A stretch of 64,000 bases of DNA from Squalus acanthias (taxonomy: Eukaryota), in assembly GCA_030390025.1 (NCBI GenBank), contig CM059431.1:135410001-135474000 (forward strand), in the 5' to 3' direction. How positions within the stretch are numbered: the first letter of the stretch is position 1; the number at the start of each line of letters is the position of its first letter. The notes beneath the pieces were generated by a model that ran no database searches, was not told the DNA's origin, and saw only the letters and a program-made list of their open reading frames with translations. This document shows positions 4,187 to 55,143 of the stretch, in pieces. A program made the translations under genes and the position numbers.

Positions 4187-5325
4187 ATGGGCGGACTAGT
4201 GGGCCTTCCTCTTAGCATTGAACATGACTGGGAGAATGAAGAGAGGCCACACAGAGCAGGACAAGCTGCTAAAAGAGGGAGGAGGAGGAGGGGGGAGAAG
4301 GGCTCTCAGCAGGAGGCCATATCCGCAGATGGTGTTCAGGGGGCAGTTCTCCTACCTGAACTTCAGCCGTGACCAATGCTTCAGAAGTCTGCGCTTCACA
4401 AAAGAGGTCATCACTAAAATCTGCCTCCTGGTGCAGCCACAACTCCAAGCTCAGAGCAGGGCAAGGGCTGCACGGCCTGTGGCTGTCAAGGTGACTGTGA
4501 CTCTGAACTTCTATGCATCTGGCTCCTTCCAAACTGCTGCTGGAGATATAAGCAACATCTCACAGTTTGCAGTGCACTGCTGCAAAAGGGAGGTCACTGA
4601 GGCTCTCTATACACAGAGAGACAGCTTCATTTCATTTCCTCTTGCCAGAGAGAAGCAGGCAGAGCGAGCATGAGGGCTTGCAAGGATTTCAGGCTTCCCC
4701 ATGGTGGAGGGTGCCAATGACTGCATGCACATTGCTTTGCATGCATTGCATGTCAACTCTGCCATTTACCCAAACCGAAAGGGATTCCACTGCTTCAATG
4801 CGCAGCTGGTGTGTGACCACAGGCAGTGCATCATGCAAATCAATGCCCGCTATCCTGGCAGCAATCACAATGCATTTGCAGCAGTCCTCTGAACCAGCTA
4901 TACTTCAACCACCACGGCAAACTAAAGGGTGGCTACTGGGCGACAAGGGTTATCCGCTGACGACATGACTCATGACTCTGGTGCCCAACCCACGCACACG
5001 TGCACAGTAGACATACAACGAGAGCCATGCTGCCACAAGAAATGTGATAGAGCAGACCATTGCCGTCCTGAAGCAATGATTCTGCTGCCTGGACCGCTCT
5101 GGAGGAGCCCTGCAGTACTCGGCTGAGCAGGTCTCAAGATTTGTCCTAGTTTGCTGCATGCTGCAAAACCTTGCCATCATGAGTGAACCACCTATCAGGT
5201 GAGAAGCTGAGGAGCAGGAGACAGAGGAGGAGGATATGGAAGAGGAGGAAGAGGAAGGGAAGCTGCAACCTAGACAGCCCCTTTCTGCCTGGCCTCTACA
5301 TGAATAAATAATTAATGAGTCATAG
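4187..5325 (+). pseudogene. Harbinger (HARBI1-like) DDE transposase, frameshifted
   Basis: Motifs across frames: VAVKVTVTLNFYASGSFQ, ISQFAVH, GANDCMHI, NRKGFHCFNAQLVCD, WLLGDKGYP, acidic tail; several stops and frameshifts. Confidence 0.9.
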
Positions 5326-6559
5326 CAATAACCTCAACCACAACTTCCCAATCACCAACACTCATTACCTTCCCTCTGTCACTGACCATCACATCCTCTT
5401 TCCCACAATGCAAAAATAAAAGCCAACACAAAATACACATTCCAATCCAAATTTATAAATTAAATCATGCCATAATGCAAACAAAAATAAAGTAATCACC
5501 CTTGTGCATTCCCTTAGTGCCTTTCCCATGTGCCTTTGCCTGTCCTAGTGCTCCTACGAGGTACTGCCCCAGTGGCTGCAGCATGGCTGGTGGAAGGCTG
5601 CTGACTTTCAGTGGAGAGGGCTGCAGATGTCCTTGGAGGGCGACCTCGAGCAGCTCTGGGCCTAGAAAACCCAGTTGCAGACTGCACCATCTTGGCATGG
5701 GCAGCAGCAGTCTGGGCTGGCTGGCTGACGGGTAACAGCAAGGGCACTTGTGGCGTGGCAGGAGTGGGAGCACAAATGCTGTCTTCCAGAGAGAGGATAG
5801 CAGGTTCGTACTCCATGGAGCCACTGCCACTCTCCTGGGGCAGCGCCTCAGCAATTCAATACTCTGTTGGAGAGCAGCTTGCTGGAGTGCTCTGACACCC
5901 TGGAAGCCCCTTTGAACACTGGTTTCCAGAGCCATGAATGCAGCAATCTGAGCTTCCATGCCAGCAAGCTGAGATTGCATGACAGCAGTCTGAGCTTCCA
6001 CTGCAGCACTCAGACGTTGGGTGGCTGCTGCTTGTGCTGCAATGGAAGCTGTGACATCGGCCATTAGAAGCTGCATCATGGTGGGTTCCACAAGTGTTCT
6101 CATGGAGTTGGCCACCACATCCATGCTGGAAAAGATGGGCTCCAAGTTCTGTGCAAAACCCTGTGCCAAGTTGGTGTCAGACTCTTCAATGCCCCTTGAC
6201 ATTGAATGCAGGCTTTCTGGCAGGCTTTCCAGTGCACCAAGCAGTTGGGTGTGTACACCCAGCAGCCTTCTTCTGTAGCCTGGCCCATCAAAGTCATCAT
6301 CTGAGTCCTCTGCAGCAGAACTAGTGTGCGACCTTGCCCTCCGATGAGCTGGCACCTGCTCTATCCTTTTCCCCTGCCCTGGCTGCAGGTCACTTGTGCC
6401 TGGTGTCTCACCATGTGCAAATCCCGCCTCTATGCTATCCTCTAAATTATGCACAGTGTCAGTATCTGAGCTGGTAGCTGCGAGTGTGAAATTGAGTGAC
6501 GGTGTGTCGTCATCTTCACTGTCTTCTTTCTCTTCCTCCACTGCCTGGGCAGGTAGTAG

Positions 6560-6774
6560 TGTCATAAATCGCAAGTAACAACTCAGGAAGTACTACTGGG
6601 CGGCCAGCTGGGGCGCCGTCCAGGGAGTATAAATACTCAGGCATGGGCCCACCTTGGGCAGAGACAATCTGGAAACAGGAAGCTAGTGACTGCTAACTAG
6701 ACCTCCATGTTTTGTTACAAGTTGATTAAAGCCTTGCTTTATGTTCAAGTGCGTAGTGAGTCTTTATTACGTCA
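6560..6774 (+). repeat. Gypsy 5' LTR
   Basis: tgtcataaatc...attacgtca; TATA-like tataaata at 6628-6635; ATTAAA at 6725-6730. Confidence 0.97.
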
Positions 6775-6874
6775 ATTTAATCAACTTGAAATCGTCTCCA
6801 CGCTTTGGGTGATTCGGAACAACCAGCTGAAACTCGAACCACAGAAGGGAACTAGGGCAAGAAACTGATCCATC

Positions 6875-9800
6875 ATGGAAAAACTCCTTAGACCCGCTCG
6901 TCTCGACCTGGACCCGAATGCACCTGCGGCAGCGAAGGTATGGAAGCATTGGTTTCGTACCTTTAGCAACTTTCTTGAAGAATGTGGGGCGGATGTCCCT
7001 AATAAGTTACGAATGCTTATCAACTATGTGTCTCCTCATGTGTATGACTATATTGAGGACTGTATAGTCTATGACACTGCTATCGAAATCTTACAGCAGC
7101 TATATGTCAAGTCCCCAAATGAAATATTTGCTCGACACCTACTGGCCACAACTCAGCAGCAGCCTGGGGAATCACTCGATGAATTTCTCCAGAAACTTCG
7201 CAGGCTCAGCAAGGATTGTAACCTTAAAGCAGTTACAGCTGAACAGTATCAAGAGGAACGAATCCGCAATTCCTTTATCAATGGGATCGCGTCCCCTTTT
7301 ATACGTCAGCGCCTGCTGGAAAATAAAACCCTCAATTTACGGGCTGCTTATGACCAGGCGTGTTCCTTGGACTTGGCCAAGAAAAATGCAGACACTTATC
7401 TCCCACCACGTGCACGGGCGGCGGCTATCTCCTTTAATGAGTCTTTCGGTAGGTCTCGGGCGGATGCCCCCACTGATGTTGACTCTACTCTAACGGACGA
7501 CGACCCTACCCTAGAGGCCTTCGCTGATGACGACCCCGCCCTAGCAGCATCCTGGCAATCGGGAAGAAAGTGTTTCTTTTGTGGAGGGGCGTGCCATCAC
7601 AGAAAATCTTGCCCGGCTCGTAATGTGACCTGCAATCATTGCAGCAAGAAAGGACACTTTTCCAAGGTATGCCAGTCACGGGCCTCTGCTAACCAGAAAG
7701 GCCGCTCCTCTAAAGTATACCGGTCGAGAGCTCCTGTTAGCTTCACAGCTGCTATCTATGGAGCTGCTCCTCCCCCAAGAATTACTGTTAAGGCTACAGC
7801 TGCCAAAGGGAAAATTGTCCCTCCTCCCATCACAGCTGTTTTTCCCCAAAGTTTGTCCCATGCAGCCACGAAGGTTTCAGTAAATGGGCACACTCTAAGC
7901 GCGCTAATCGACTCCTGCAGCTCTGACAGCTTCATTAGTAAGCGGGCTGTCAACAGGTTAAAACTGCACATTTATCCCTCGGACAGGGAGATTGCAATGG
8001 CTCTGACGACTCTGACCACCAATTCTTCTGGCTTCTGTCTGGTCAACCTCATCCTCAACGGCCGCACGTATCTCTCCACCCGGCTCGGAGTACTCGCAAA
8101 CTTATGCAGCGATGTGCTTCTGGGACAGGACTTCCAGAAGCAGCACAAGAAAATCACTTTTGAGTTTGGAGGGTCAAGGCCGGAGCTTACCATTTCTAAG
8201 GTGCCGTTTTGTGCACTCTCGGCAGCCTTACTCGGTGAACCCTCCCTGTTTGCCAATCTTCCCCCCCGCTGTAAACCCATAGCCACCAAATCGCGGCGCT
8301 TTAGCCAAGACGATCGAGCGTTTATTGAGGCGGAAATCTCTCGCCTTTTAGTCGACGGTATTATCGAGCCATGTTCATCTCCCTGGCGGGCTCAGGTCGT
8401 CATTGTGAGGAATCCCTTAAAACAACATAAAAAACGTCTGTGTATCGATTATTCGCAGACTATTAATCAATATACCGATCTGGATGCCTACCCACTGCCA
8501 CGCATAGATGACATGGTCAACAACCTTGCCAAATACAAGGTATTCTCGACCTTCGATTTAAAAAGCGCGTACCATCAGGTGCCACTGCAAGACTCCGACA
8601 AGAAGTATACGGCCTTTGAGGCCAATGGTCGGCTTTTCCAGTTTCGCCGCCTTCCATTCGGGGTCACCAATGGGGTGGCCGTCTTCCAACGGGCCATGGA
8701 TGGCCTAGTCCGGCAAGAGAACTTGACGGATACCTTTCCGTATTTAGACAATATCACTATTGCCGGTCATGATCAAAAGGAGCATGACGCCAATCTTCAG
8801 AGATTTTTTGACGTACTCCGCCGTCGCCACTTAACGTTAAACGAATCCAAATCGGTGAAGTCGGTGCCATCGGTGAACATTCTTGGCTACTGCGTGGGCA
8901 ACGGTGTTATTAAACCGGACCCAGAGCGACTTCGTCCACTTCAGGAGCTCCCTCCCCCGACGAACCTCGGCTCTCTTCGTCGGGCACTTGGCATGTTTGC
9001 TTATTACGCAAAATGGATACCACACTTCTCCGATAAAATACAGCCCCTGCTCCATGCGAAGTCTTTTCCATTGGAAGCTACGGCTATTTCTGCCTTCAAC
9101 CTCCTCAAACGACAGCTGGAGAAAGCCACGCTTCGCTCCATTGACGAAAATCTTCCTTTTGTGGTCGAATGCGATGCATCGGAGGTGGCGATCTCCGCTA
9201 CCTTGAATCAAGGTGGCCGACCCGTGGCATTCCTATCCAGAACCTTGCAGGGTAGCGAGTTCCATTACCCCCCCGTCGAGAAGGAGGCTACGGCCATCAT
9301 CGAGGCTGTACGCCAATGGGGTCATTTTCTTGCTCGGCGTCATTTTACGCTTATAACTGACCAGCGCTCTGTGGCCTTCATGTTGGATAACCGGAGGCGC
9401 ACGAAAATCAAAAATAATAAAATTCAACTCTGGAGGATGGAGCTGGCTGCCTTTGGATATACTATCTGTTACCGACCCGGCAAACAGAACGTGGCCCCAG
9501 ATACCTTCACACGGGCATTTTGCTCCTCAATGTCAACGTCGACTCTGGCGGATTTGCATATGGACTTGTGCCATCCTGGTGTGACCCGCATGTTGCACTT
9601 TGTGCGCTCCAAAAATCTACCATTTTCAACCGAGGACGTAAAGAAAACATGCTCCTCCTGTAGGATTTGTGCAGAATTGAAACCACAATTCTTTCGCCCA
9701 TCAGATGGCTTACTCATACATGCAATGCAGCCTATGCAGAGGCTCAGCATAGACTTTAAAGGGCCATTGCCTTCGTCGACAAGGAACACCTACCTACTTA

Positions 9801-10816
9801 CGATGGTGGACGAGTATTCACGCTTTCCCTTCGCCTTCCCCTGCCCTAATATGCTTACCTCTACGGTAATTAAATGCCTCGATCAGGTCTTTTCCCTTTG
9901 CGGGACGGCCAATTTTATCCACACTGATCGGGGTCCCTCCTTTATGTCGAGTGAACTTAAAAGTTATCTCTCCCAACGTGGAATCGCCTCAAGTAGGACG
10001 ACACCATATCACCCAATCGGTAACGGAGAGGTTGAACGATACAATGCCATCATCTGGAACGCTGTCCGTCTGGCACTAAGGTCACGCAACCTACCGGACC
10101 AGCAGTGGGAAACGGTGCTCCCCGACGTGTTACACTCTATCAGGTCTCTTCTCTCCACATCTACTAATGTCACGCCTCATGAGCGATTCTTCAAATTCCG
10201 GCGTCGCTCTACACATGGGACGTCTCTACCGTCATGGTTGGTGGCTCCAGGCCCGGTGCTACTCCGGAGGTTCGTCCGGTCTGCCAAAAACGACCCTCTC
10301 GTTGACGAGGTGGAGTTAACGGAGGTAAACCCCACGTATGCGCACATATGGTACCCTGATGGCCGGGAGACCACCGTCTCGCTCCGAGATCTGGCTCCCT
10401 GCCCAACCGGTCACACGGGCCCGAATGATGAAGGATCCCACGACGATGATATCAACACTCCGCACCCCTATGAAAATGACGCCCCGCCTGGGACATCGGG
10501 GGATCTGCCGGCAACGCTACCGGATCAACTCAGGGAGCTGGACGCTCCCCGTAGGATGGCCACCCGAAACCAGGACGCCGGACAATCTCCAGCCACGACC
10601 CGGGATGAGGCCAGCTCAGCACCTGTGGGGACCCGCACCCGGAGTCATGATATTCCCAGTCCTCCACAGGATGATCAAGATGACGCGGACTCTACTGACT
10701 TACCGGTATGGGCCAAGCGACCCAGGGACCAGGACACGGTCCGGGGAGACGTGCCTTCCGGTCACAAGCAGAGAGCTAAACGTCTACGGCTATTTCTGGT
10801 CCGCCTAGTCCGTTAA
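6875..10816 (+). CDS. gag-pol: Gypsy Gag-Pol polyprotein (Gag with 2 Zn knuckles, protease, RT, RNase H, integrase), 1313 aa
   Basis: CFFCGGACHHRKSC and CNHCSKKGHFSKVC; LIDSCS protease; RLCIDY, FDLKSAYHQV, LPFG, YLDN RT; CDAS...EKEA...TDQ RNase H; HHCC and D-D-E (IDFKGP, HTDRG, EVERYN) integrase, in Gypsy domain order. Confidence 0.97.
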   Translation: MEKLLRPARLDLDPNAPAAAKVWKHWFRTFSNFLEECGADVPNKLRMLINYVSPHVYDYIEDCIVYDTAIEILQQLYVKSPNEIFARHLLATTQQQPGESLDEFLQKLRRLSKDCNLKAVTAEQYQEERIRNSFINGIASPFIRQRLLENKTLNLRAAYDQACSLDLAKKNADTYLPPRARAAAISFNESFGRSRADAPTDVDSTLTDDDPTLEAFADDDPALAASWQSGRKCFFCGGACHHRKSCPARNVTCNHCSKKGHFSKVCQSRASANQKGRSSKVYRSRAPVSFTAAIYGAAPPPRITVKATAAKGKIVPPPITAVFPQSLSHAATKVSVNGHTLSALIDSCSSDSFISKRAVNRLKLHIYPSDREIAMALTTLTTNSSGFCLVNLILNGRTYLSTRLGVLANLCSDVLLGQDFQKQHKKITFEFGGSRPELTISKVPFCALSAALLGEPSLFANLPPRCKPIATKSRRFSQDDRAFIEAEISRLLVDGIIEPCSSPWRAQVVIVRNPLKQHKKRLCIDYSQTINQYTDLDAYPLPRIDDMVNNLAKYKVFSTFDLKSAYHQVPLQDSDKKYTAFEANGRLFQFRRLPFGVTNGVAVFQRAMDGLVRQENLTDTFPYLDNITIAGHDQKEHDANLQRFFDVLRRRHLTLNESKSVKSVPSVNILGYCVGNGVIKPDPERLRPLQELPPPTNLGSLRRALGMFAYYAKWIPHFSDKIQPLLHAKSFPLEATAISAFNLLKRQLEKATLRSIDENLPFVVECDASEVAISATLNQGGRPVAFLSRTLQGSEFHYPPVEKEATAIIEAVRQWGHFLARRHFTLITDQRSVAFMLDNRRRTKIKNNKIQLWRMELAAFGYTICYRPGKQNVAPDTFTRAFCSSMSTSTLADLHMDLCHPGVTRMLHFVRSKNLPFSTEDVKKTCSSCRICAELKPQFFRPSDGLLIHAMQPMQRLSIDFKGPLPSSTRNTYLLTMVDEYSRFPFAFPCPNMLTSTVIKCLDQVFSLCGTANFIHTDRGPSFMSSELKSYLSQRGIASSRTTPYHPIGNGEVERYNAIIWNAVRLALRSRNLPDQQWETVLPDVLHSIRSLLSTSTNVTPHERFFKFRRRSTHGTSLPSWLVAPGPVLLRRFVRSAKNDPLVDEVELTEVNPTYAHIWYPDGRETTVSLRDLAPCPTGHTGPNDEGSHDDDINTPHPYENDAPPGTSGDLPATLPDQLRELDAPRRMATRNQDAGQSPATTRDEASSAPVGTRTRSHDIPSPPQDDQDDADSTDLPVWAKRPRDQDTVRGDVPSGHKQRAKRLRLFLVRLVR

Positions 10817-10854
10817 AGGAAGACTGGACTTCCAAACCTTTTAGGGAGGAAGAA

Positions 10855-11069
10855 TGTCATAAATCGCAAGTAACAACTCAGGAAGTACTACTGGGCGGCC
10901 AGCTGGGGCGCCGTCCAGGGAGTATAAATACTCAGGCATGGGCCCACCTTGGGCAGAGACAATCTGGAAACAGGAAGCTAGTGACTGCTAACTAGACCTC
11001 CATGGTTTGTTACAAGTTGATTAAAGCCTTGCTTTATGTTCAAGTGCGTAGTGAGTCTTTATTACGTCA
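10855..11069 (+). repeat. Gypsy 3' LTR
   Basis: Identical to 6560-6774 except ccatgTtttg vs ccatgGtttg. Confidence 0.97.
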
Positions 11070-11289
11070 AGTAGTTCTTGGATAACTGTAAGGAAAAAGC
11101 GACTAGGGAAGTGTTGTGGTGAGGGGAGAGGAGAAAGCAGGAAGTGCATGCTTTGGCGCCTTTCACCATAGGGAAGCCTGCCATGCGTGTGAAACCTGGT
11201 CCTGCTTTGCTTTGTCCATAGAGAAGGAGATTTATGTGTTTCTCCAGGTGTAGAGAGCCTCGGTGATAGATCGGTGCGATGCGAACTGG

Positions 11290-11610
11290 GATATGTCACT
11301 TATTTCACTTGCTGTGGCCTGAAAGGAGCCCATGGCACAAGAGTTAAGGGTCATGGTAACCTTGACAGCCACAGGCAGTGCTGTCCATCCCCTGGTGTGA
11401 GCCTTGAGTTATGGCTTCAGTAGGTGACATAGCTCAGGGACAGCCTCCTTGGTTGAGGTAGGAGAAGTACTCCCTGAATACTACTGTTATTATGGCCTCC
11501 TATGCAGTGCCCTCCTCCTCCCTCTTTTGGCAGCTGCTCATGCTGTCTTCCTTGCTGCTCTCCATCCTCCCCCAGCCTTGAAAATAGCCCTACCAGACCA
11601 CCCATGACAA
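11290..11610 (-). pseudogene. Inverted 5' fragment of a Harbinger transposase
   Basis: MGGLVGL... N-terminus like 4187+, and the reverse complement of cctgtggctgtcaaggttacc (PVAVKVT). Confidence 0.7.
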
Positions 11611-11952
11611 TACTTCAGCTGGAACCTAAACAGTAATTCTGGGACCACCTCAGGAGGAGGAGGAGGAGGGAGAGGAGGAGGAGGAGGACAAGAAAGAGGA
11701 CGAGGAGGTGGACGAGGAGGAAGGGAGGAGGCAGGCAGCAGATCCCCATTCCGCCCAGGCTGTCCGTGAAGGCCTCATCAGACTCCAAATCCAGTGAATG
11801 AAACCCCAGATTGTGGTTGCTCACCACATCCCCATCATACCATCCCTCTGTCACAAAATATCTCAACATCCTCCTGGGCACAAAGCTGAAATGAGAGCCA
11901 CCACAAAACAAATATTCCAAACAAAATTAATAAATTTAACACTATTCAATCA

Positions 11953-12275
11953 ACACGGTGGCATAGTGGTTAGCACTGTTACCTCACAGCGCCAGGGACC
12001 CGGATTCGAATCTGGCCTTGGGTGACTGTCTGTGTGGAGTTTGCACATTCTCCCCGTGTCTGCGTGGGTTTCCTCCGGGTGCTCCGGTTTCCTCCCACAG
12101 TCCAAAGATGTGTGGGTTAGGTTGATTTGGCTATGATAAAAAAAAAATTGACCCTTAGTGTTAGCGGGGATTAAATACGTGGGGTTATGGGGATAGGGTG
12201 GGATATGTGTCGGTGCAGGCTCGATGGGCCGAAATGGCCTCTATCTGCACTGTGGGGATTCTGTGACTTCTGTGA
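11953..12275 (+). mobile_element. HE1-like V-SINE (tRNA head, V-domain, CR1-type tail)
   Basis: A box tggcatagtgg, B box ggattcgaatc, V-domain gtctgtgtggagtttgcacattctccccgtgtctgcgtgggtttcctccgggtgctccggtttcctcccac, tail gggccgaaatggcct. Confidence 0.88.
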
Positions 12276-12289
12276 ATTACAATATGAAC

Positions 12290-14216
12290 TAATTACCCTT
12301 GTGCAATCCCTTAGTGCCTGTCGTTCGAGTGCCTTTTCCTACTCTAGTGCTCCTATGCAGTGTTCCCCCAGTGTCTGCAGCATGGCTGGTGGAAGGCTGC
12401 TGTGTTTCCATGGGGGAGACAATGGATGGCCTTGCAGAACAACCTGAACCAGCTGTGGACCGAGACAATCCAGCTGTACACTGCACCACTTCGGCACGGG
12501 TGAAAGCAGCCTTGGCTGGCTGACCGGCAACAGCAAGAGCAATGGTGGACTGGCAGTGGTGGGAGCAGGAATGCTGTCATCCTGAGAGAGGACCGCAGGT
12601 TCTTGCTCCACAGACCCACTGCCACTCCCCCGGGGTGGCCCCTCAGCATTGCTAACCATCTGTTGGAGGACACCCTGCAAGGCCCCTTTCGACACTCGTA
12701 AACCCAGCGACGATGGCAGCAGCCTGAGCTTGGGTGGCAGCAAGCTGAGCCTGCAGGAGAGCAGTCTGTGCCTCCACTGCAGCAGTGAGACATTGGGTCA
12801 CTTCCGCCTGTGCTGCAATGGAAGCTGCAACATCGCTCATCACACCCAGCATCACGGCTGGATCGACAAGGTCTCTCCTGGAGTTGTCCATCATTTCCAG
12901 CCTGGAAATCATGGGCTCCAAGCTCTGTGCAAAGCCCCGTCCATTGTTGGAGCAGGACTCCTCCATGCTCCTTGACATTGACAAGAGGCTCTCTAGCAGG
13001 CTTGCCATTGCACCAAGCATTTCGGTGTGCATGGCCATCACCCTTCTTCTGAAGGCCGCCCCATCGAGGTCATCATCTGAGTCCTGTGTAGCAGGACTTG
13101 TGTGCGAACTCGCCCTCCGGGGAGCTTCCCCCTGAGCTACCCTTTCCCTCTGGCCTTGCTGCAGCCCACTCATGCCCGGTGCCTCACCCTGTGCAGATCC
13201 CGCCTCTATACTACCCTCTACATTCCGCGCAGTACCAGTTTCTGAGCTGCTGTCTACGAGTGTCAGATGCAGTGATGATGTGTCTTCTTCTTCTCCTTCA
13301 ATTGCCTCCACAGCATGATGGACAGACTGGCCTGCTGGCAGTTCTTGGGTATCTGAAAGCAGAAAGGCACAAGAGTCGGCTAGCGGTGAGGAGAAGGGAG
13401 AAAGCAAGATATCCATGCATGCACCATCAGCAGCTTGTAAGTGAGAAGAGATTGTGGGATGAGGGGGAAGTGGGATGTAAGAAGAAGGATTAGGAATGAG
13501 CATACCGTCATTGTCAGCAAGAGCTTCAACTTTGCCCGTTGCCACGGCATTGGTGACTGCCTCTCAAATGATGTCGAGCATGGACTCCTCCAGTTGGCTC
13601 AGGTTCTGTACAGTGGCTTGGTCGTCTCCTGTCTGCCATTGTTCCCAGCAGTTATGAGCCACCTTTGACTGCAAGAGAAAGAGAAGGGTGTGAGTGAGTG
13701 TAGTGTAATGTGTTTAGGTCTTGTTCCTGCCATAGTTGAATAGCTGTCAGTGTGTGTGATGTGGGTGTGAGTGTTGCAGCAGTGGTTAGGTTGTGAGGGT
13801 GAAGTGAAGCTATGATTGTGAGTTATGAGTGGTGATCGGTGAGGCTTGTGGTGCAGATGGTGGGAATTGGCATTTGCTAAAGTCTTCACTCACCTTGACA
13901 TAAGAACATAAGAAATAGGAGCAGGAGTAGGCCATTCGGCCCCTCGAGCCTGCTCCGCCATTCAATAAGATCATGGCTTGACCTGCCGTGTAAGGTCATT
14001 AAACTTCTTTCAGCACTGGATCCATGTTCTTGGCATGACGCTGGTGGCTGTGATGTAGGTAGCGATCTCCTGCCAGAGCCTTCTACTTTTAGCCTTCGAT
14101 GGATTCCTGCCACCCTGCGGGAACAGGACAGCCTGCCTTCTTTCAACTGCCACTACCAAGGCCTCGAGTGCAGCATCTGAAAACCTTCTTGCTCTCTCTC
14201 TGGATTGTTGTGCTAT
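12290..14216 (-). pseudogene. Harbinger ORF2, Myb/SANT-like DNA-binding protein
   Basis: Exon 1 RARRFSDAALEALV...LFP...WQEIA...RTWIQC*KKFNDL (Myb/SANT-like); later exons are homologous to 5494-6559. Confidence 0.82.
13900..13976 (-). mobile_element. 77-bp 5'-truncated CR1 tail insertion
   Basis: (ataagaac)n tail plus CR1 3'UTR, flanked by TSD CTTGAC (13894-13899 / 13977-13982). Confidence 0.9.
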
Positions 14217-14514
14217 GGCTTCGATCAGGCTGACAATGAGGTGCTGCTGTAACAAAGCACCTCCCATTTAAATAGTGCAGTGAGCCTAGGCCAAACATTA
14301 CTGGCCAGTAGACTGCACCCGATATTGGCCAACCTGTTGAGTGTTAAGCCAATCGGCAGCGTGTTTAGCGCAGAGATCACCACTACAATCATTATAATGA
14401 GCAGGCAGAACTAATTTTGCGTGCTGCCTGGACTACTATCAATGGGCGGAGGCAAATAGCGCTGGCCCTTGAAACCATCTGTTTTCGAGCCTTATCCAAT
14501 TTCTAGGCCATCGA

Positions 14515-15896
14515 TTCCAAATGCTTTTTTAATAGCTTTCTCAACTTACTCTGCCACCATCAAAGATTTTTGTATGTAGAACCCCCAGGTCTCTGTTCCT
14601 GCACCCCCTTTAAAATTGTAAAATTTTGTTTATATTGCCTCTCCTCATTCTTCCTACCAAACTGCATCACTTCAAACTTCTATGTGTTAAATATCATCTG
14701 CCATGTGTCTGCCCATTTCACCAGTCTATCTATCTCCTCCTGAAGTCTTTTACTATCTTCCTCACTGATCTAGACGAGGGAACTAGATGTAATATCTCCA
14801 AGTTTGCAGACGATACAAAGCTGGGTGGGCGTGTGTGCTGTGAGGAGGATGCAGAGAAACTCCAGTATGATTTGGATAGGTTGGGTGATTGGGCAGATGC
14901 ATGGCAGATGCAGTATAATGTGGATAAATGCGAGGTTATCCACTTTGGTGGCAAAAACAGGAAGGCAGATTATTATCTGAATGGCAAAAGATTGAGAAAA
15001 GGGGAAGTGCAACGAGACCTGGGTGTCCTTGTGCACCAGTTGCTGAAGGTAAGCATGCAGGTGCAGCAGGCGGTTAAGAAGGCAAATGGTATGTTGGCCT
15101 TCATAGCGAGAGGATTCGAGTACAGGAGCAAGGATGTCTTGCTGCAGTTGTACAGGGCCTTGGTGAGATCACACCTTGAGTATTGTGTGCAGTTTTGATC
15201 ACCTTATCTGAGGAAGGTTGTTCTTGCCATGGAGGGAGTGCAGCGAAGATTCACCAGACTAATACCTGGGATGGCAGGAATGACGTATGAAGAGAGATTG
15301 GGTCGATTGGGCTTGTATTCACTAGAGTTTAGAAGAATGAGAGGGGTTCTCATTGAAACTTATAAAATTCTAACAGGACTAGACAGACTAGATGCAGGAA
15401 GGATGTTCCCGATGGCGGGGGAGTCCAGAACCAGGGGTCACAGTCTAAGGATAAGGGGTAAGCCATTTAGGACTGAGATGAGGATGAATTTTTTCACCCA
15501 GAGAGTGGTGAACCTGTGGAATTCTCTACCACAGAAGGCAGTTGAGGCCAATTCATTAAATATATTCAAGAAGGAGTTCGATATATTTCTTAAGGCTAAA
15601 GGGATCAAGGGATATGGGGAGAAAGCAGGGACAGGGTACTGAATTTGGATGATCAGCCATGATCTCATTAAATGACGGAACAGGCTCGAGGGGCCGAATG
15701 GCCTACTCCTGCTCCTATCTTCTATGTTTCTATGTTACTACATTTCCGAAGTTTGTTTCATCTGCAAACTTTGAAATTATTCAGTGTATTGCCAAGTCCA
15801 GGTCATTAATATATATCAAAAAGAGCAATGGCTCTTAGCACCGACCCCTAGGGGACAACACTGTATACTTACCTCCAGTCTGAAAAACAACCATTC
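14515..15896 (-). mobile_element. Old CR1 fragment split by a younger CR1
   Basis: Minus-strand RT remnants at 14515-14765 and 15736-15896 (tcatctgcaaacttt = KFADE/D). Confidence 0.7.
14766..15735 (+). mobile_element. CR1 LINE 3' part (RT C-terminus and tail)
   Basis: SKFADDTKLGG...HLEYCVQF...; tail tctatgtttctatg; very similar to 27718-28633. Confidence 0.95.
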
Positions 15897-18800
15897 TTTT
15901 TTTTATTCATTCCTGGGATGTGGGTCTCGCTGACAAGGCCAGTATTTATGGCCCATCCCTAATTGCCCCTGAGAGGCTGGTGGTGAGCCGCCGCCTTGAA
16001 CCGCTGCAGTCCTTGTGGTAAAGGTACTCCTACAGTGCAGTTATGGAGGGTGTTCCAGGATTTTGACCCAGTGCCGAGGAAGGAACGGCGATATATATTC
16101 AAGTCAGGATGGTGTGTAACTTGGAGGGGAACTTAGAGGTAATGATGTTCCCATGTGTCTGCTGCCCTTGTCCTTCTAGGTGGTGGAGGTCGCGGGTTTG
16201 GGAGGTGCTGACGAAGAGGCCTTGTCGAGTTGCTGCTAATGCCATTGAATGTCAAAGGGAGGTGGTTAGACTTTCGCTTGTTGGAGATAATCATTGCCTG
16301 GCACTTGTGTGGCGTGAATGTTACTTGCCACTTATCAGCCCAAGCCTGAATGTTATCCAGGTCTTGCTGTATCAGGACATGGACTGCTTCATTATCTGAA
16401 GTGTTGCGAATGGAACTGAACACTGCAAAATTATCAGCAAACATCCCCACTTCTGACCTTATGATGGAGAGAAGGTCAATGATGAAGCAGCTGAAGATGG
16501 TTGGACCTAGGACACTGCCCTAAGGAATTCCTGCAGCATTGTCCTGGGGCTGAGATGATTGACCTCCAACAACCACAACCATCTTCCTTTGTGCTAGGTA
16601 TAACTTCAGACAGTGGAGAGTTTTCCCCCTGATTCCCATTGACTTCAATTTTACTGGGGCTCCTTGATGCCACATTCGTTCAAATGCTGCCTTGATGTCA
16701 AAGGCAGTCACTCTGGAATTCAGCTCTTTTGTCCATGTTTGGACAATGATGTCTGGAGCCGAGTGGTCCTGTTGGAACCCAAACTGTGCATCGTTGAGCA
16801 GGTTATTGGTGAGTAAGTGCCGCTTGATAGCATTGTCGACGACACCTTCCATCACTTTGCTGATGATTGAGAGTAGACTGATGGGGTGGTAATTGGCCAG
16901 ATTCGATTTGTCCTGTGGACAGCACGTACCAGGGCAATTTTTCACATTGTCGGGTAGATGCCAGTGTTGTAGCTGTACTGGAACAGATTGGCTAGATGCG
17001 CGGCTAGTTCTGGAGCACAAGTCTTCAGTACGACAGCTGGGAAGTTGTCGAGGCCCATAGCCTTCGCTGTATCCAGTGCGCTTAGCCGTTTCTTGATATC
17101 ACGTGGAGTGAATCGGATTGGCTGAAGACTGGCCTCGGTGATGGTGGGGACCTCAGGAGGAGACCGAGATGGATCAGCCACTCGGCATTTCTGGCTGGAG
17201 ATGGTTGCAAATGGTTCAGCCTTGTCTTTTGCACTCACGTGCTGGGCTCCACAATCATTGAGGATGGGGATATTCATGGAGCCTCCTCCTCCCATTCGTT
17301 GTTTAATTGTCCACCACCATTCACGACTGGATGTAGCAGGACTGCAGAACATTGATCTGATCCGTTGGTTGTGGGATCACTTAGCTCTGTCTATAGCATG
17401 CTGCTTCCACATTTTAGCATGCATGTAGTCCTGTGTTGTAGCTTCCCCAGGTTGGCACCTCATTTTTAGGTACGCCTGGTGCTGCTCCTGGCATGCTCTT
17501 CTGTTCTCCTCATTGAACCAGGGTTGGTCCCCTGGCTTGATGGTAATGTTAGAGTGAGGGATATGCCAGGCCATGAGGTTACAGATTGTGGTGGTATATA
17601 ATTCTGCTGCTACTGATGACCCACAGCACCTCATGGATGCCCAGTTTTGAGCTGCTAGGTCTGTTCTGAATCTATTCCATTTAGCACGGTGGTAGTGCCA
17701 CACAACACGTTGGAGGGGTCCTCAGTGTGAAGACGGGACTTCGCCTTCACAATGAATGTGCGGTGGTCACTGCTACCAATACTGTCATGGACTGTTGCAT
17801 CTGCGACAGGTAGATTGGTGAGGAAGAGGTCAAGTAGGTTTTTCCCTCGTGTTGGTTCTCTCACCACCTGTCGCAGGCCCAGACTGGCAGTTATGTCCTT
17901 CAGGACTCGGCCAGCTCGGTCAGTAGTGGTGCTACCGAGCCACTCTTGGTGATGGACATTGAAGTCCCCCACCCAGAGTACCTTTTGTGCCCTTGCTACC
18001 CTCAGTGCTTCTTTCAAGTGGTGTTCAACAGGAGGAGTACTGATTCATCAGCTGAGAGAGGGCGGTAGGTGGTAATTAGAAAGGATATACTTGCCATAGA
18101 GGGAGTGCAGCGAAGGTTCACCAGACTGATTCCTGGGATGGCAGGACTGTCGTATGAGGAGAGATTGGGTCGACTAGGCCTGTATTCACTAGAGTTTAGA
18201 AGAATGAGAGGGATCTCATTGAAACATATAAAATTCTGACAGGGCTAGACAGACTGGATGCAGGGAGGATGTTTCTCCTGGCTGGGGGTCTAGAACGAGG
18301 GGTCACAGCAGTCTTAGGATACTGGGTAGGACATTTAGGACTGAGATGAGGAGAAATTTCTTCACTCAGAGGGTGCTGAACCTGTGGAATTCTCTACCAC
18401 AGAAGGCTGTGGAGGCCAAGTCACTGAATATATTTAAGAAGGAGATAGATAGATTTCTAGACACAAAAGACATCAAGGGGTATGGCGAGAGAGCGGGAAT
18501 GTGGTATTGAGATGGAGGATCAGCCAGGATCATATTGAATGGCGGAGCAGGCTCGAAGGGCTGAATGGCCTTCTCCTATTTTTCTATGTTTCTATGTAAT
18601 CAGCAGACAGTTTCCTTGCCCATACTTGAGCTGAAGCCACGAGACTTCATGAGGTCCGGAGTCAATGTTGAGGACTCCCAGGGCCACTCCCTCCCGACTG
18701 TATACCACTGTGCCACCACCCCTGGTTGGTCTGTCCTGCCGGTGGGACAGGACATACCCAGGGATGGTGATGGAGGAGCCTGGGACATTCGCTGAAAGGT

Positions 18801-19331
18801 TTAAATCTGTGAGTATGACTATGTCAGGCTGTTGCTTGACTAGTCTGTGGGCCAGCTCTCCCAATTTTGGCACAAGTCCCCAGATGTTAGTAAGGAGGAC
18901 TTTGCAGGTTTGATTGGGCTGGGTGTTCCTTTGTCGTGTCCGAAGCCAGTGCCTGGGTGGTCCATCCGTTATTTTTCTTATTATTGTTTTCCGTAGTTGG
19001 TACAACCTAGTGTTTTGCTGGGCCATTTCAGAGGTCAGTTAAGAGTCAACCACATTGCTGTGGGTCTGGAGTTACATATAGGCTAGACCACGTAAGGACG
19101 ACAGATTTCCTTCCCTAAAGGACATTAGTGAACCAGATGGGTTTTTACGAGAATTCGATAGTTTCATGGTCACCATTACTGATTATAGCTTTTTATTCCA
19201 GATTTAATTAACTGAATTTAAATTCCCCAGCTGCCGTGTTGGGATTTGGCACTATCACCGTGCTAAATGGGATCATTAGGCCAGTCCTCTGGATTACTAG
19301 TCCAGTAACTTAACCACTATGCTACCGTACC
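15897..19331 (-). mobile_element. tRNA-headed single-ORF LINE (CR1/L2 group EN-RT), copy 1, decayed
   Basis: tRNA-like head at ~19235-19331, then APE endonuclease (LTNIWGL, DIVILT, GDFNVH, LLDL, SDH) and RT (KAMGLDN, FDIKAAFERMWH, MFADN); 3' tail gggatgggccataaat...poly(A). Confidence 0.88.
18076..18596 (+). mobile_element. CR1 3' fragment inserted in the tRNA-headed LINE
   Basis: CR1 ORF2 end and tail; short duplication (g)taat at both junctions. Confidence 0.9.
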
Positions 19332-21560: not shown

Positions 21561-21811
21561 TGTGTGCAGATTGGGAGAATGTTTCTGTGTATTGATGAAA
21601 TGCCATCCCTGTTGGAAAGCATTAAAATGATTTGATGCCAAAATGTTGGCGTTATGGCATCGGTTCTTTTGCCTTAGGCAGCTCCACATTGCGGGCACCG
21701 CCACACTTCCATTGTCAGGTTGGTGGCCTGAGTGAAAGGAGGTCAGAGAGTTTAGTCCATTGTCAATGATGTCTTAGGATGGAGCCAAGGACATGTGCCA
21801 ACTTGGGCTAC

Positions 21812-23050
21812 CTACGCAAATCTGGCCATGATAAGTTCATCCCTTGTATCCCGGGCAGCCTTGTGCTCGCGTGCTGCTGCTGCTGCTGGTCGATACACCG
21901 GCGCTCTGACCTCCTCCTGCTCCTCCTCCTCCTCCAGATCCTCCTCCTCCTCCTCCTCAGCCTCCTCCTCCTCCTCCTCCTCCTCCTCATCCGAGGAGGG
22001 CTGGAACTGAGCCGCTTGCTCATCAGGATGCTGCAAGCCACGACACTGTGTGATGTTGTGCAGTGTACAGCAGACCACGACCATTCTGGAGACCCTGTAT
22101 GGTGTATACTGCAGGGTCCTGATCGGTCAAGGCAACGGAAGCACATCTTCAAAAACCCAATGGTTTGCTCGATGATGGACCTGGTCGAAGTGTGGCTGGC
22201 ATTGTAGTGCTCTTCAGCCTCGTTAGCTGGCCTCCTGATTTGTCACCAAGGAGCCATCCATTAAGTTGGTTTGGTGGATTGAAAAGCGGAGGAACACTGG
22301 AGTGCCGCAGGATGAAAGAGTCATGGCAACTACCACAGAACTTGCTGCAAACATTCAAAAACTCCTCCTTGTGGTTACACACCAGCTGTACGTTGAGGGA
22401 GTGGAAGCCCTTTCGGTTGACAAAGATAGCTGGGTTGTGATGGGGTGCTCTAAGGGCCACATGTGTGCAGTCTATGACGCCCTGCACCATTGGCATGCCT
22501 GCCATATTTGCAAAGCCAACCGAACGGGCGGTTATACTTGCTTGATCCCTTGAGAAGTGGATGTAATTGTGGGCCTTAGCAAAAAGGGCATCAGTAACCT
22601 GCGTGATGCAACTGTGGGCGGCCGACTGAGAGATGCCGCTGATGTCTGCTGATGATCCCTGGAAGGAGCCTGAGGCAAGGAAGTTGAGTGTGGTGGTGAC
22701 TTTGACAGCCACTGGTAAGGGATGTCCACCCGTTCCTCTGGGCACCAGGTCTTGCTGCAGCAGGCCACAGATCTCTTGGACAACCTCTCGTGAAAATCTC
22801 AGCCTCCTTTGGCACTGCTGCTCACTCATGTTGAGGTAGCTCATCCTTTGTAAACCCTCTGTTGAAGGTATCTCCTGCGATGAGGTGCCTCGATGCGCTG
22901 GCGCCTTCTGCCCTGTGCAGCATCAGGTGGCTGAGCAGGAGGTTGGGGCTCCTGCTGCTGTTGCTGCCTGAGCTGCCTGGTTCTGCTGCTTCCGTGGATG
23001 CTCCTCATCCTCATCTGAGTCCATGCAGAAAGAAAACGAATGGTTCCCAT
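21812..23050 (-). pseudogene. Harbinger (HARBI1-like) transposase, frameshifted
   Basis: [66 protein letters not shown], poly-E tail. Confidence 0.92.
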
Positions 23051-23328: not shown

Positions 23329-23759
23329 TTTTTTTTTATTCGTTCTTTGTGATGTGGGCGTCGTTGGCAAAGCCAGCATTTATTGCCCATCCCTAATTGC
23401 CCTTGAGAAGGTGATGTTGAGTCGCCTTCTTGAACCGCTGCAATACGAGTGGTAACTGAGTGGCTTGCTGGGCCATTTCAGAGTCAACCACATTGCTGTG
23501 GGTCTGGAGTCATATATAGGCCAGACAAGGTAAGGATGACAGATTTCCTTCCCTAAAGGACACTAGTGAACCAGATGGGTTTTTACAACAATCCAGTAAT
23601 TTCATAGTCACCCATACTAGCTTTTTAATTTCAGATTTATTTAATTAACAGCAGCAGCATCCCAGCATTCATGGTGGGATTTGAACTCGTGTCACTGGAT
23701 CATTAGTCCAGGCCTCTGGATTACTAGTCCAGTAACATAACCACTATGCTACCATTCCC
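23329..23759 (-). mobile_element. tRNA-derived SINE made of the 5' head and 3' tail of the tRNA-headed LINE
   Basis: A box tagcatagtgg, B box gttcaaatcc; body matches 55953-56235; tail matches ~58255-58333. Confidence 0.88.
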
Positions 23760-26065: not shown

Positions 26066-28633
26066 GAAATACCAAGGGGCAGAAAACGTTAGTGGGAGTG
26101 GTATACAGACCCCCAAACAGTAATGCGGAGGTTGGGGATGACATTAAAAAGGGAAATTAGAGAAGCGTGCAATAATGGCACAGCAGTTATCATGGGTGAC
26201 TTTAATTTACATATAGATTGGGCTAACCAAATTAGTAAAAGTACTGTGGAGGAGGAATTCCTGGAGTGTATACGGGATGGTTTCCTGGACCAATATGTCG
26301 AGGAACCAACTAGAGATCAGGCCATCTTAGACTGGGTATTATGTAATGAGAAAGGATTAATTAACAATCTTGTTGTGCGAGGCCCCTTGGGTCAGAGCGA
26401 TCATAATATGATAGAATTCTTCATTAAAATGGAGAGTGAAGTAGTTGACTCGGAGACTAGGGTCCTGAATTTAAATAAAGGAAACTACGATGGTATGAGG
26501 CGCGAGTTGGGTAGGATTGATTGGGGAATGTTACTCAAAGGGCTGACGGTGGATAGGCAATGGCAAACATTCAAAGATCGCATGGATGAACTGCAGAATT
26601 TGTTCATCCCTGTTTGGCATAAAAATAAAACAAAAAAGGTGACTCAACCATGGCTAACAAAGGAAATTAGGACTAGCATAAGATCCAAGGAGAGGACATA
26701 TAAATTGGCCAGAAAAAGCAGTAAACCTGAGGATTGGGAGCAGTTTAGGATTCAGCAAAGGAGGACAAAGGGATTAATTAAGAGGGGGAAAATAGAGTAT
26801 GAGAGTAAATTTGCAGGGAACATAGAAACTGACTGTAAAAGCTTTTATAGATATGTGAAGAGAAAAAGATTGGTGAAGTCAAACGTAGGTCCCTTGCAGT
26901 CAGAATCAGGGGAATTTATAATGGGGAACAAAGAAATGGCAGAGCAATTAAATACATACTTTGGTTCTGTCTTCACAAAGGAGTACATAAATAACCTCCC
27001 AGAGATGTCGGGGAACATAGGGTCTAATGAGAGGGAGGAACTGAAAGAAATCAGTATTTGTAGGGAAATGGTGTTAGCGAAATTGATGGGATTGAAGGCC
27101 GATAAATCCCCAGGGCCTGAAAATCTACATCCTAGGGTACTTAAGGAAGTGGCCCTAGAAATAGTAGATGCATTGCTGGTCATCTACCAAAATTCGATAG
27201 ATTCTGGAACAGTACCCATGGATTGGAGGGTAGCTAATGTTACCCCACTATTCAAAAATGGTGGTAGAGAGAAAACGGGGAATTATAGACCGATAAGCCT
27301 GACATCGGTAGTGGGAAAAATGCTGGAGTCCATTATAAAAGATGTAATAGCAGAGCACTTGGAAAACAGTGACAGGATCGGACAAAGCCAACATGGATTT
27401 ACAAAAGGTAAATCATGCTTCACTAATCTACTGGAATTTTTTGAAGATGTAACTGGTAAAATAGATAAGGGAGAACCAGTGGATGTGGTGTATTTGGACT
27501 TTCAGAAGGCTTTTGATAAGGTCCCGCATAACAGATTAGCATGTAAAGTTAAGGCACATGGGATTGGGGGCAAGGTATTGACTTGGATAGAGAACTGGTT
27601 GGCAGACAGAAGGCAAAGAGTTGGAATAAACGCGTCTTTTTCCGAGTGGCAGGCAGTGACTAGTGGGGTACCGCAGGGATCGGTCCTAGGACCCCAGCTG
27701 TTCACAATATACATTAATGATCTAGACGAGGGAACGAGATGTAATATCTCCAAGTTTGCAGATGACACAAAGCTGGGTGGGCGTGTGTGCTGTGAGGAGG
27801 ATGCCGAAAAACTGCAGTATGATTTGGACAGGTTGTGTGATTGGGCAGAATCATGGCAGATGCATTATAATGTGGATAAATGTGAGGTTATCCACTTTGG
27901 TGTCAAAAACGGGAAGGCAGATTATTATCTGAACGGCAATAGATTGGGAGAAGGGGAAGTGCAACGAGACCTGGGTGTCCTTGTGCACCAGTCGCCGAAG
28001 GTAAGCATGCAGTTGCAGCAGGCGGTTAAGAAGGCAAATGGTATGTTGGCCTTCGTAGCGAGAAGGTTCGAATACAGGAACAAGAATGTCTTGCTGCAGT
28101 TGTACAGGGCCTTGGTGAGACCACACCTTGAGTATTGTGTGCAGTTTTGGTCGCCTTATCTGAGGAAGGATGTTCTTGCCATGGAGGGAGTGCAGCGAAG
28201 ATTCACCAGACTGATACCTGGGATGGCAGGAATGACGTATGAGGAGAGATTGGGTTCATTGAAACTTATAAAATTCTAACAGGACTAGACAGACTAGATG
28301 CAGGAAGTATGTTCCCGATGGTCGGGGAGTCCAGAACCAGGGGTCACAGTCTAAAGAAAAGGGGCAAGCCATTTAGGACAGAGATGAGGATGAATTTCTT
28401 CACCCAGAGAGTGGTGAACCTGTGGAATTCTCTACCACAGAAGGCAGTGGAGGTCAATTCATTAAATATATTCAAGAAGGAGTTAGATATATTTCTTAAG
28501 GCTAAAGGGATATGGGGAAAAGGCAGGGACAGGGTACTGAATTTGGATGATCAGCCATGATCTCATTGAATGGCGGAGCAGGCTCGAGGGGCCGAATGGC
28601 CTACTCCTGCTCCTATCTTCTATGTTTCTATGT
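26066..28633 (+). mobile_element. CR1 LINE, 5'-truncated, with most of ORF2
   Basis: Starts in the endonuclease (VGVVYRPP), runs through RT and ends in the (tttctatg)n tail; small deletion near 28255. Confidence 0.96.
26123..28279 (+). pseudogene. CR1 ORF2 (partial endonuclease plus reverse transcriptase), 718-aa open frame
   Basis: MGDFN, SDH, KSPGP, NYRPISLTS, LDFQKAFDKVPH, GVPQGSVLGP, FADD; N-terminally truncated and C-terminally frameshifted. Confidence 0.93.
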
Positions 28634-53559: not shown

Positions 53560-55143
53560 TTAAGGGGTTTAGCAGCTTTAACAGTGGATAAATCCCCAGG
53601 CCCGGATGAAATGTGTCCCAGGCTGTTAAGCGAAGCAAAAGAGGAAATAGCAGAGGCCCTGACCATCATTTTCTAATCTGCTCTGGCTTCAGGTGTGGTG
53701 CCGGAGGACTGGAGGACTGCTAATGTGGTACCCTTGTTTAAAAAGGGAGAAAAGGATAGACGAGTAATTACAGGCCAGTCAGCCTAACCTCGGTGGTGGG
53801 AAAATTATTGGAAAGAATTCTGAAGGACAGGATAAATCTTAATTTAGAAAGACACGGATTAATCAAGGATAGTCAGCACGGATTTGTTAAGGGAAGGTCG
53901 TGTCTGACAAACTTGATTGAATTTTTTGAGGAGGTAACAAGGAGGGTAGATGAAGGTAGTGCATTTGATGTAGTGTATATGGACTTTAGCAAGGCTTTTG
54001 ATAAGATTCCACATGGCAGACTGGTCACGAAGTTAAAAACCCATGGGATCCAGGGCAAAGTGTCAAGTTGGATTCAAAACTGGCTCGGAGACAGGAAGCA
54101 GAGGGTAATGGTTGATGGGTGTTTTTGTGACTGGAAGGCTGTTTCCAGTGGGGTTCCGCAGGGCTCAGTACTAGGTCCCTTGCTTTTTGTGGTATATATC
54201 AATGATCTAGACTTGAATATAGGGGGTATGATTAAGAAGTTTGCAGATGATACTAAAATCGGCTGTGTGGTTGATACTGAAGAAGGAAGCTGTAAACTGC
54301 AGGAAGATATCAATAAATTGGTCAGGTGGGCAGAACAGTGGCAAATGGAATTCAATCCGGAGAAGTGTGAGGTAATGCATTTGGGGAGGGCTAACAAGGA
54401 AAGGGAATGCACATTAAATGGTAGGACACGGAGTAGTGTAGAGGAACAAAGGGACCTTGGAGTGCATGTCCACAGATCCCTGAAGGTAGCAGGCCAGGTA
54501 GATAAGGTGGTTAAGAAGGCATACGGAATGCTTGACTTTATTAGCCGTGGCATAGAATACAAGAGCAGGGGGGTTATGCTTCAACTGTATAAAACACAAG
54601 TTAGGCCTCAGCAGTTCTGGTCACCACATTACAGGAAAGATGTGATTGCACTAGAGAGGGTACAGAGGAGATTTACAAGGATGTTGCCAGGAGTAGAGAA
54701 TCTTAGCTATGAGGAAAGATTGGATAGGTTGGGTTTGTTTTCCTTGGAACAGAGGAGGCTGAGGGGAGACCTTATTGAGGTGTATAAAATTATGAGGGGC
54801 CTAGATAAAGTGGATAGAAAGGACCTATTTCCCTTAGCAGAGGGGTCAAAAACCAGGGGCCACAGATTTAAAGTAATTGGGGGAAGGTTTAGAGGGTATT
54901 TGAGGGGAAATTTCTTCACCCAGAGGGTTGTGAGGGTCTGGAACTCACTGCCTGAAAGGGTGGTAGAGGCAGAAACCCTAACCACATTTAAAAAGTACTT
55001 GGATGTGCACTTGGGATGCTGTAACCTGCAGGTCTATGGACCTAGAGCTGGGAAGTGGGATTAGGCTGGATAGCTCTTTGTTGGCCGGCGCGGACACGAT
55101 GGGCCGAAATGGCCTCCTTCCGTGCTGTAACTTTGTATGATTC
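53560..55143 (+). mobile_element. CR1 LINE, 5'-truncated (423-aa RT frame 53793-55064)
   Basis: MDFSKAFDKIPH, GVPQGSVLGP, FADD, CR1 C-terminus and tail. Confidence 0.95.

Follow-up and report, generated by a model that had tools for sequence, protein, structure and literature searches.

Can a protein-coding retrotransposon have been shaped by selection so that RNA polymerase III (Pol III), a polymerase that normally makes only short noncoding RNAs, can read it? In the division of labor drawn by textbooks, and by papers cited below (Kroutter 2009; Kojima 2018), long interspersed elements (LINEs) are protein-coding and transcribed by RNA polymerase II (Pol II), and short interspersed elements (SINEs) are noncoding and transcribed by Pol III. 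The question is raised by a 64,000-nt stretch of the genome of Squalus acanthias (assembly GCA_030390025.1, contig CM059431.1, positions 135,410,001 to 135,474,000 of the forward strand), which is the window referred to throughout and whose coordinates are used here. It contains two copies of a LINE headed by a tRNA-like sequence, copy 1 at 15897-19331 on the minus strand and copy 2 at 55954-58353 on the plus strand. A preliminary description had remarked that runs of four Ts (T4; T4+ for four or more), the Pol III terminator, are almost missing from the sense strand of both. We find that T runs are indeed avoided, throughout the family and beyond what codon usage explains, and that the avoidance is confined to T and to the sense strand. 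The best single explanation would be selection for read-through by Pol III, which we put forward tentatively.

The Sense Strand of the Family Is Nearly Devoid of T4

Copy 1 is a member of an abundant family of non-LTR retrotransposons of about 3.3 kb. Its minus-strand frames match the Pfam domains Exo_endo_phos_2/Exo_endo_phos and RVT_1, as expected of a non-LTR retrotransposon. A search of the genome (3.7 Gb) with copy 2 as query gave at least 27,102 first-look candidates; 40 of them were scored, yielding 30 loci. The order of parts is a tRNA-derived head, a 5′ UTR of about 300 nt, one long endonuclease/reverse transcriptase frame, and some 100 nt of 3′ tail, which is A-rich.

Copy 1 is interrupted by a nested CR1-like fragment that is foreign to it (approximately 18078-18597, plus strand, similar by BLAST to the CR1-like copies at 15211-15735 and 28163-28633). 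Outside this fragment there is, as had been counted by eye, a single sense T4 in 2915 nt (T fraction 0.214), at 16427-16430 on the minus strand; the two other AAAA of the plus strand that read as sense T4, at 18230-18233 and 18465-18468, lie inside it. Copy 2 has the one TTTT previously reported, at 56297-56300 on the plus strand, in 2370 nt (55954-58323). Sense runs of four or more As (A4+) are common, also as stated before, with 18 in copy 1 and 15 in copy 2. The two CR1-like LINEs used as controls, both on the plus strand, are richer in sense T4+ runs, with five at 26066-28633 and six at 53560-55143, and the plus strand of the whole window has 343 such runs, or 5.36 per kb.

The suggestion that neither T4 is ancestral is confirmed by a MAFFT alignment of 39 copies (103,691 nt, L004 dropped), from which per-position T-run frequencies were taken and no family consensus was built. 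Each T4 is private: only copy 1 (W1) has one at L014 coordinate 2403, and only copy 2 (L001) has one at L014 coordinate 372. The 39 copies together contain 16 T4 runs, all of exactly four Ts, at 15 positions, one of which is shared, by two copies; 27 of the 39 have none. Their density is 0.15 per kb, against the 5.36 per kb of the window. No T4 is conserved in the family: over about 3.3 kb the ancestral sites include no T4 and only seven runs of three Ts. Sense T4 is absent from 21 of the 30 genomic copies; seven have one, L013 has three, and L004 has eleven, all within an insertion of about 600 nt between reference positions 331 and 391. Sense A4+ runs in these copies are about as frequent as expected (9-20 per copy, 26 in L004).

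Beyond T4, the Deficit of T Runs Exceeds What Codon Usage Predicts

Five full-length copies (3.2-3.3 kb) have no T4, where mononucleotide shuffles predict 4.2-4.8 (P = 0.005-0.008). A sixth, L025, has one (P = 0.026 in the same comparison, 0.34 and 0.85 under first- and second-order Markov models), and the window copies have one each, against 4.7 in copy 1 (P = 0.047) and 3.9 in copy 2 (P = 0.096). The concern that the depletion might simply reflect the low T content of the strand is thus answered for the full-length copies at the level of base composition, and it returns for T4 under Markov and codon models (see below). Statistics of T4 alone under such models were rejected as proof, being underpowered.

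The case is carried instead by shorter runs and by clusters. In synonymous shuffles that keep amino acids and codon usage fixed (n = 2000), three long frames have four runs of three or more Ts (T3+) each, against 9.77, 8.42, and 7.40 expected (P = 0.0035, 0.0065, and 0.066), and the A, C, and G runs of the same frames are mostly near expectation (0.78-1.06). T-rich clusters, defined as at least four Ts in 5 nt, a measure that takes in the degenerate signals of five or more Ts described by Orioli (2011), number 1, 1, and 2 in these frames, against 5.2, 4.2, and 4.4 (P = 0.011, 0.031, and 0.145). Full-length copies have one to six of them, against about 14 (P ≤ 0.005), and A-rich clusters by the same measure are as expected. 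Under synonymous shuffles, the observed/expected ratio for T3+ runs and T-rich clusters is about 0.2-0.5. The three frames overlap and descend from one ancestor, and hence are not independent. The comparison of Phe codons that had been proposed as a check shows a TTT:TTC ratio of 5:27, against 138:268 (34% T) for the other T/C pairs (Fisher P = 0.022); for Leu, TTR:CTR is 12:51.

Such a deficit is not found in the control set of eight sequences, seven from six other transposon families plus the frame of the host gene RAG1 (3099 nt). Among the transposons are two CR1-like copies and members of two other LINE families, of which three sequences served for T3+ and two for clusters; the others are a Gypsy element (C at third codon positions, C3, of 0.30) and a Penelope-like element (C3 0.53). 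Under synonymous shuffles their observed/expected ratios are 0.79-1.10 for T3+ runs and 0.64-1.06 for T-rich clusters. Two values are nominally significant, the clusters of L056 (10 vs 15.7, P = 0.015) and the T3+ runs of CR1a (22 vs 27.8, P = 0.028), with effects much smaller than in the tRNA-headed LINE. A further LINE family of 15 copies, with a T fraction of 0.22-0.23, has six to eight T4 in 1.9 kb, against zero to two in nine copies of the tRNA-headed LINE from the same search.

The tRNA-Like Head and the Companion SINE

The head belongs to the LINE and is at its true 5′ end. The first 400 nt are reached by 26 copies; in 15 of them the head is present from within its first 20 nt, and 12 of the 15 begin at +1 to +4 (as genomic copies, which are not transcript ends), with unrelated flanks upstream. 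The truncation points of the remaining 11 are scattered, with no second cluster of starts. A typical head reads GGAACGGTAGCATAGTGG ... GAGTTCAAATCC. Most full-length copies have TAGCATAGTGG at +8 to +18, followed near +72 by GAGTTCAAATCC; from their consensus motifs we take these to be box A and box B, respectively, box B following some 53 nt after box A, with a long insert resembling a variable arm. The head of copy 1 (19247-19331, minus strand) has an intact box A and a rearranged box B region.

The window also contains a short form of 424 nt (23330-23753, minus strand), made of the head, the 5′ UTR, and a tail of about 100 nt, and free of T4. It is a tRNA-derived SINE: short, noncoding, with a tRNA-like head, a tail shared with a LINE, and many dispersed copies. 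By BLAST it corresponds to the long element's initial ~300 nt joined to its final ~125 nt; when 14 LINE 5′ ends and 17 short forms are aligned, the common parts are ~330-345 nt at the 5′ end and ~100 nt at the 3′ end. In copy 1, the shared 5′ UTR is at 19033-19326 (minus strand; 80% identity to 23471-23753, and supported by the same alignment) and the shared tail with its A-rich end at 15897-16021 (minus strand; 82% identity to 23330-23455, and supported by the 3′ ends of 22 copies). The short form is matched in 39 further places of the genome with 79-85% identity, and in 36 of these the match spans 395 or more of the 424 nt; its first-look candidates number 7990, and the 16 copies fetched are 410-450 nt long.

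With the Rfam tRNA model, the head of copy 2 scores 16.9 bits, and heads of short forms score 22.5, 23.1, and 31.8 bits, one in 16 passing the gathering score of 29. ARAGORN detected no tRNA in the 64-kb window. Head variants common to at least five LINE copies occur in none of the 17 short forms, and hence the head was inherited within the LINE lineage rather than acquired anew each time. Within the first 45 nt, a LINE-specific variant, GGTAATGTCACTGGGC, is found in L014, L025, L004, L029, and L013, against GGTTATGTTACTGGAC in the short forms L061-L076. The short-form type of head is also found on the LINE copies L001 and L036 and on copy 1 of the window. These variants suggest that the headed LINE has two sublineages, or else that there has been some exchange with the SINE.

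Transcription by Pol III as a Proposed Explanation

Since canonical T4 is absent and degenerate T-rich terminators are scarce, read-through by Pol III may be proposed. Boxes A and B would be bound by TFIIIC and TFIIIB, and Pol III would start at the first G of the head, read the full 3.3 kb, and stop once it meets a run of Ts in the 3′ flanking DNA. The resulting RNA would be the template for target-primed reverse transcription, being recognized via the shared tail, and the deficit of T runs would be the trace left by selection for read-through on the master copies. The protein could come from the uncapped Pol III RNA itself, or in trans from separate Pol II or read-through transcripts. In the parts of the literature drawn upon here, T4 is given as the minimal Pol III terminator (Gao 2017), degenerate terminators of five or more Ts are described as causing partial stops (Orioli 2011), and SVA was judged to be no Pol III unit because of its many terminators (Kroutter 2009, PMC2666806). 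As even weak stops would add up over 3.3 kb, a graded deficit could be explained in the same way, although this makes for a flexible argument. Selection of this kind on master copies appears to us the best single explanation, with a probability somewhat below even. We consider possible, and on balance slightly doubtful, the fuller scheme of an autonomous LINE whose template would be made by Pol III from the tRNA-derived internal promoter, i.e., a SINE encoding its own enzyme, with a 2.9-kb coding region purged of canonical and degenerate terminators and with the companion SINE as its internal-deletion derivative.

A number of points count against Pol III read-through, several of them from T4 itself. 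In the five full-length copies, the absence of T4 compares with 1.7-2.0 expected under a first-order Markov model (P = 0.14-0.19) and 0.5-1.1 under a second-order model (P = 0.34-0.61). In the 733-codon frame of L005 (2.2 kb), it compares with 0.76 expected under dinucleotide shuffles (P = 0.46), 1.64 under codon permutation (P = 0.17), and 1.8 under synonymous shuffles (P = 0.12-0.14). T4 alone is thus weak evidence, because significance is lost once dinucleotides or codon usage are kept. Hence, the T4 count does not provide the independent support for a Pol III-transcribed element that it was first thought to give, and the codon-shuffled control suggested at that time leaves only T3+ runs and T-rich clusters depleted. 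When 2.4-kb windows are slid along both strands of the 64 kb, the median is 13 T4+ runs, and four unrelated stretches (4201-6600, 11601-14000, and 59401-61800 on the plus strand, 12201-14600 on the minus strand) have zero or one T4, against 2.2-6.1 expected; on T4 alone, the window copies are no more unusual than these. The likeness does not extend to other measures: the observed/expected ratio of TT is 0.85-0.98 in the four stretches, a milder deficit than the 0.69-0.79 of the window copies, and their T-rich clusters are mildly low or not low.

Other points concern the shape of the deficit and the element itself. Pooled over 29 copies, there are 2485 TT, 228 TTT, and 10 TTTT (22 expected for TTTT from a second-order model). 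Relative to composition only, the observed/expected ratio is about 0.7 for TT and about 0.3-0.4 for TTT, so that the deficit is graded, with no step at T4, and we know of no evidence that Pol III stops at two or three Ts. The C3 of the family is 0.34, against 0.12-0.15 in other LINE families, and such C-rich third positions remove many T runs without any Pol III argument. As all copies descend from one ancestor, they are statistically a single observation. Copy 1's head scores 14.3 bits with the Rfam model (positions 1-71), below the gathering score. A search for exact repeats of at least 6 nt at the boundaries of 11 copies revealed no target-site duplications, which leaves the ends of the element unfixed by this means; CR1/L2-type elements often lack them. 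Finally, to our knowledge there is no natural precedent for a 3-kb protein-coding Pol III transcript. Of the original proposal that the coding sequence was selected to be readable by Pol III, what stands is an avoidance of T runs beyond codon usage and a head at the 5′ end; what does not is its specificity to T4, and part of the deficit is due to third positions.

Several of these points feed the strongest rival explanation, in which the deficit would be a by-product of the family's composition and codon context (its low T, its third positions rich in C, and its few TTT, TTA, and TTG codons) in a LINE transcribed by Pol II, the head being a leftover 5′ UTR that was gained from its SINE through recombination or template switching. 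The high C3 and the lean of all T/C codon pairs toward C are what it predicts, as are the lack of significance of T4 under dinucleotide, codon-permutation, and synonymous shuffles and the existence of other T4-poor stretches in the window. The depletion of TT and TTT would not be predicted by selection specific to T4. In addition, LINEs and their deletion derivatives are taken as Pol II units in the account of Kojima (2018, PMC5786205), as far as the portion cited here goes. However, if codon context were sufficient, one would expect the deficit to vanish when amino acids and codon usage are fixed, and that of T3+ runs and T-rich clusters persists (P = 0.0035-0.03), with no counterpart for A, C, or G. 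One would also expect it in C3-rich controls, and neither the Gypsy nor the Penelope-like element has it, nor does the host gene RAG1. The bias of Phe exceeds that of the other T/C pairs (P = 0.022), and under Pol II an extra assumption is required to explain why 5′ ends fall uniformly at head +1. This leaves the by-product explanation a serious one, which we nevertheless think is probably not correct.

T runs may also be avoided for a reason that concerns the RNA and not Pol III, such as U-tract-binding proteins, U-rich destabilizing or polyadenylation elements, the polypyrimidine tracts of cryptic splice sites, or slippage of the reverse transcriptase on U runs. A general avoidance of U tracts fits a strand- and T-specific deficit that spans TT, TTT, and T4, but the other transposons and the host gene used as controls show none, C runs are not avoided (which argues against pyrimidine tracts), AATAAA motifs are kept on the sense strand in the 5′ UTR and tail, and the head is left without explanation. 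We regard it as unlikely. Less likely still is chance, i.e., that one ancestral sequence happened to be free of T4. The single common ancestor and the P values of about 0.1-0.4 obtained for T4 under realistic nulls would allow it; the deficits of T3+ runs and T-rich clusters combined (P about 0.001-0.01), restricted to one base and one strand, make it very improbable. Selection for Pol III read-through would account for the deficit and the head together.

Structure of the Copies and Other Features of the Window

Full length is put at about 3.2-3.3 kb because copy 1, although near full length by BLAST against copy 2 and the 30 genomic loci, lacks some 360 nt that other loci have. The site of the absence is 16236-16237 (minus strand), and the extra nucleotides of the other loci lie between reference positions 2575 and 2576. 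The endonuclease region of copy 1 (17658-19038, minus strand) is split into two frame pieces by the nested insertion, with Pfam matches to PF14529 (E = 8.6e-13, 17655-18044) and, weakly, to PF03372 (18592-19038). The reverse transcriptase region (16136-17098, minus strand) matches PF00078, RVT_1 (E = 4.4e-12 and 6.8e-09). Copy 2 retains the head and has lost the C-terminal part of its reverse transcriptase through an internal deletion; its 3′ boundary is supported by BLAST to 58323, the tail to about 58353 having been read by eye. In L005 the frame is uninterrupted over 733 aa. The 30 loci are spread over many contigs and start at reference positions 1-993, with the 3′ tail in common, i.e., with variable 5′ truncation. 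The protein has 26% identity over 583 aa with a CR1-like copy of the window and 26-35% with other LINE families of the genome found by an endonuclease search; judged by pairwise identity alone, it looks CR1/L2-like.

None of 21 aligned copies has an in-frame ATG ahead of the endonuclease domain in the endonuclease frame. Most of these copies have an out-of-frame ATG (context AAGAATGAAACC), from which a frame of about 45-50 codons extends and overlaps the start of the endonuclease frame. The region concerned is L014:1030-1260 (about 290-520 of the element), or about 18850-19040 (minus strand) in copy 1, and a 12-nt in-frame indel there is polymorphic among copies. Given also some nine ATGs in the 5′ UTR (counted by eye), initiation looks unconventional whichever polymerase is used. 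On the sense strand, AATAAA is conserved twice in the 5′ UTR (about +100 to +125) and once about 50 nt before the 3′ end, and the 3′ ends of 22 copies show a further conserved one at the very end, just ahead of the A run.

Words of the LINE family occur in the sequencing runs of nine organisms. Four runs were compared with L014 as short contigs of 150-350 nt, which give a depth akin to copy number and say nothing of starts, strands, or expression. Along L014:742-4036, depth peaks at the 3′ end; it is also high across the head and 5′ UTR, and it is low where the open reading frame begins. The joints typical of the short form (~1025-1063 to 3932-3975 of L014) are present in all four organisms examined.

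Three of the T4-poor stretches, 4201-6600 (+), 11601-14000 (+), and 12201-14600 (-), are GC-rich (0.52-0.53) and near T4-free, with four to six expected, and 5484-6517 is 76% identical to 12281-13293. A 229-nt repeat with 98% identity (6547-6775 and 10844-11070) lies on either side of an uninterrupted Gypsy-type polyprotein frame of 1315 aa (6869-10813, plus strand; protease, reverse transcriptase, RNase H, and integrase), which has 17 sense T4+ runs. A Penelope-like frame (RVT_1 and GIY-YIG) is at 59607-61370 on the minus strand; the strand antisense to it is rich in G and free of T4 over 2.4 kb. DDE_Tnp_4 frames at 21811-22922 (minus strand) are probably remains of a PIF/Harbinger-type transposase. 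Two open frames of 851 and 489 aa (46874-49426 and 43215-44681, both minus strand) have no Pfam match and contain nine and ten T4, an excess over the 3.7 and 2.3 expected from mononucleotide shuffles.

Relation to Known Elements and Implications

Sequences of Pol III-type RNA joined 5′ of LINE sequence are found in the chimeric U6/LINE-1 retrocopies, which are said to be one-off, dead chimeras of 5′-truncated L1; unlike them, the element described here forms a lineage that replicates, its junction uniform and its copies in the thousands. Closer parallels come from published work, which is compared here through the passages cited and by description. Pairs of a tRNA-derived SINE and a LINE that share 3′ tails are well known, in cartilaginous fishes too, where examples are HE1/HER1 and SacSINE1 with an L2-type LINE (PMC3747384, PMC5499810). 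As in these, a tRNA-like head with A and B boxes is found on the short element and a 3′ tail is common to the short and long ones; the difference, as far as these descriptions go, is that here the long coding element also carries the head and about 330 nt of 5′ sequence. Kojima (2018, PMC5786205) describes SINEs made of a head and of 5′ and 3′ parts of a LINE, a plan that the short form follows, with its tRNA head in front of a LINE 5′ part and 3′ part. In the portion of that work cited, the head is on the SINE only and the 5′ parts come only from the RTE and Vingi clades, whereas here the autonomous LINE is headed too and the protein resembles, by identity alone, CR1-like copies. As for long Pol III units, Alu-neoTET and B2-neoTET are marked SINEs driven by Pol III with T4-free cassettes (PMC2666806). 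Like them, the headed LINE would have a type-2 Pol III promoter (here predicted from sequence) in a T4-free unit far longer than a SINE; as presented in that source, they are artificial, and no retrotransposition protein is encoded from the Pol III RNA.

A literature search, with Repbase, Dfam, and supplements outside its scope so that prior annotation is possible, turned up no account of an autonomous LINE that carries a tRNA-derived head. Should the deficit be compositional only, it is a useful warning that T4 counts need codon-aware null models. If Pol III read-through is the true explanation, the line between LINEs and SINEs would be blurred by a natural case of a long transcript made by Pol III, one that may encode protein as well, and a SINE could originate simply, by internal deletion of a headed LINE.

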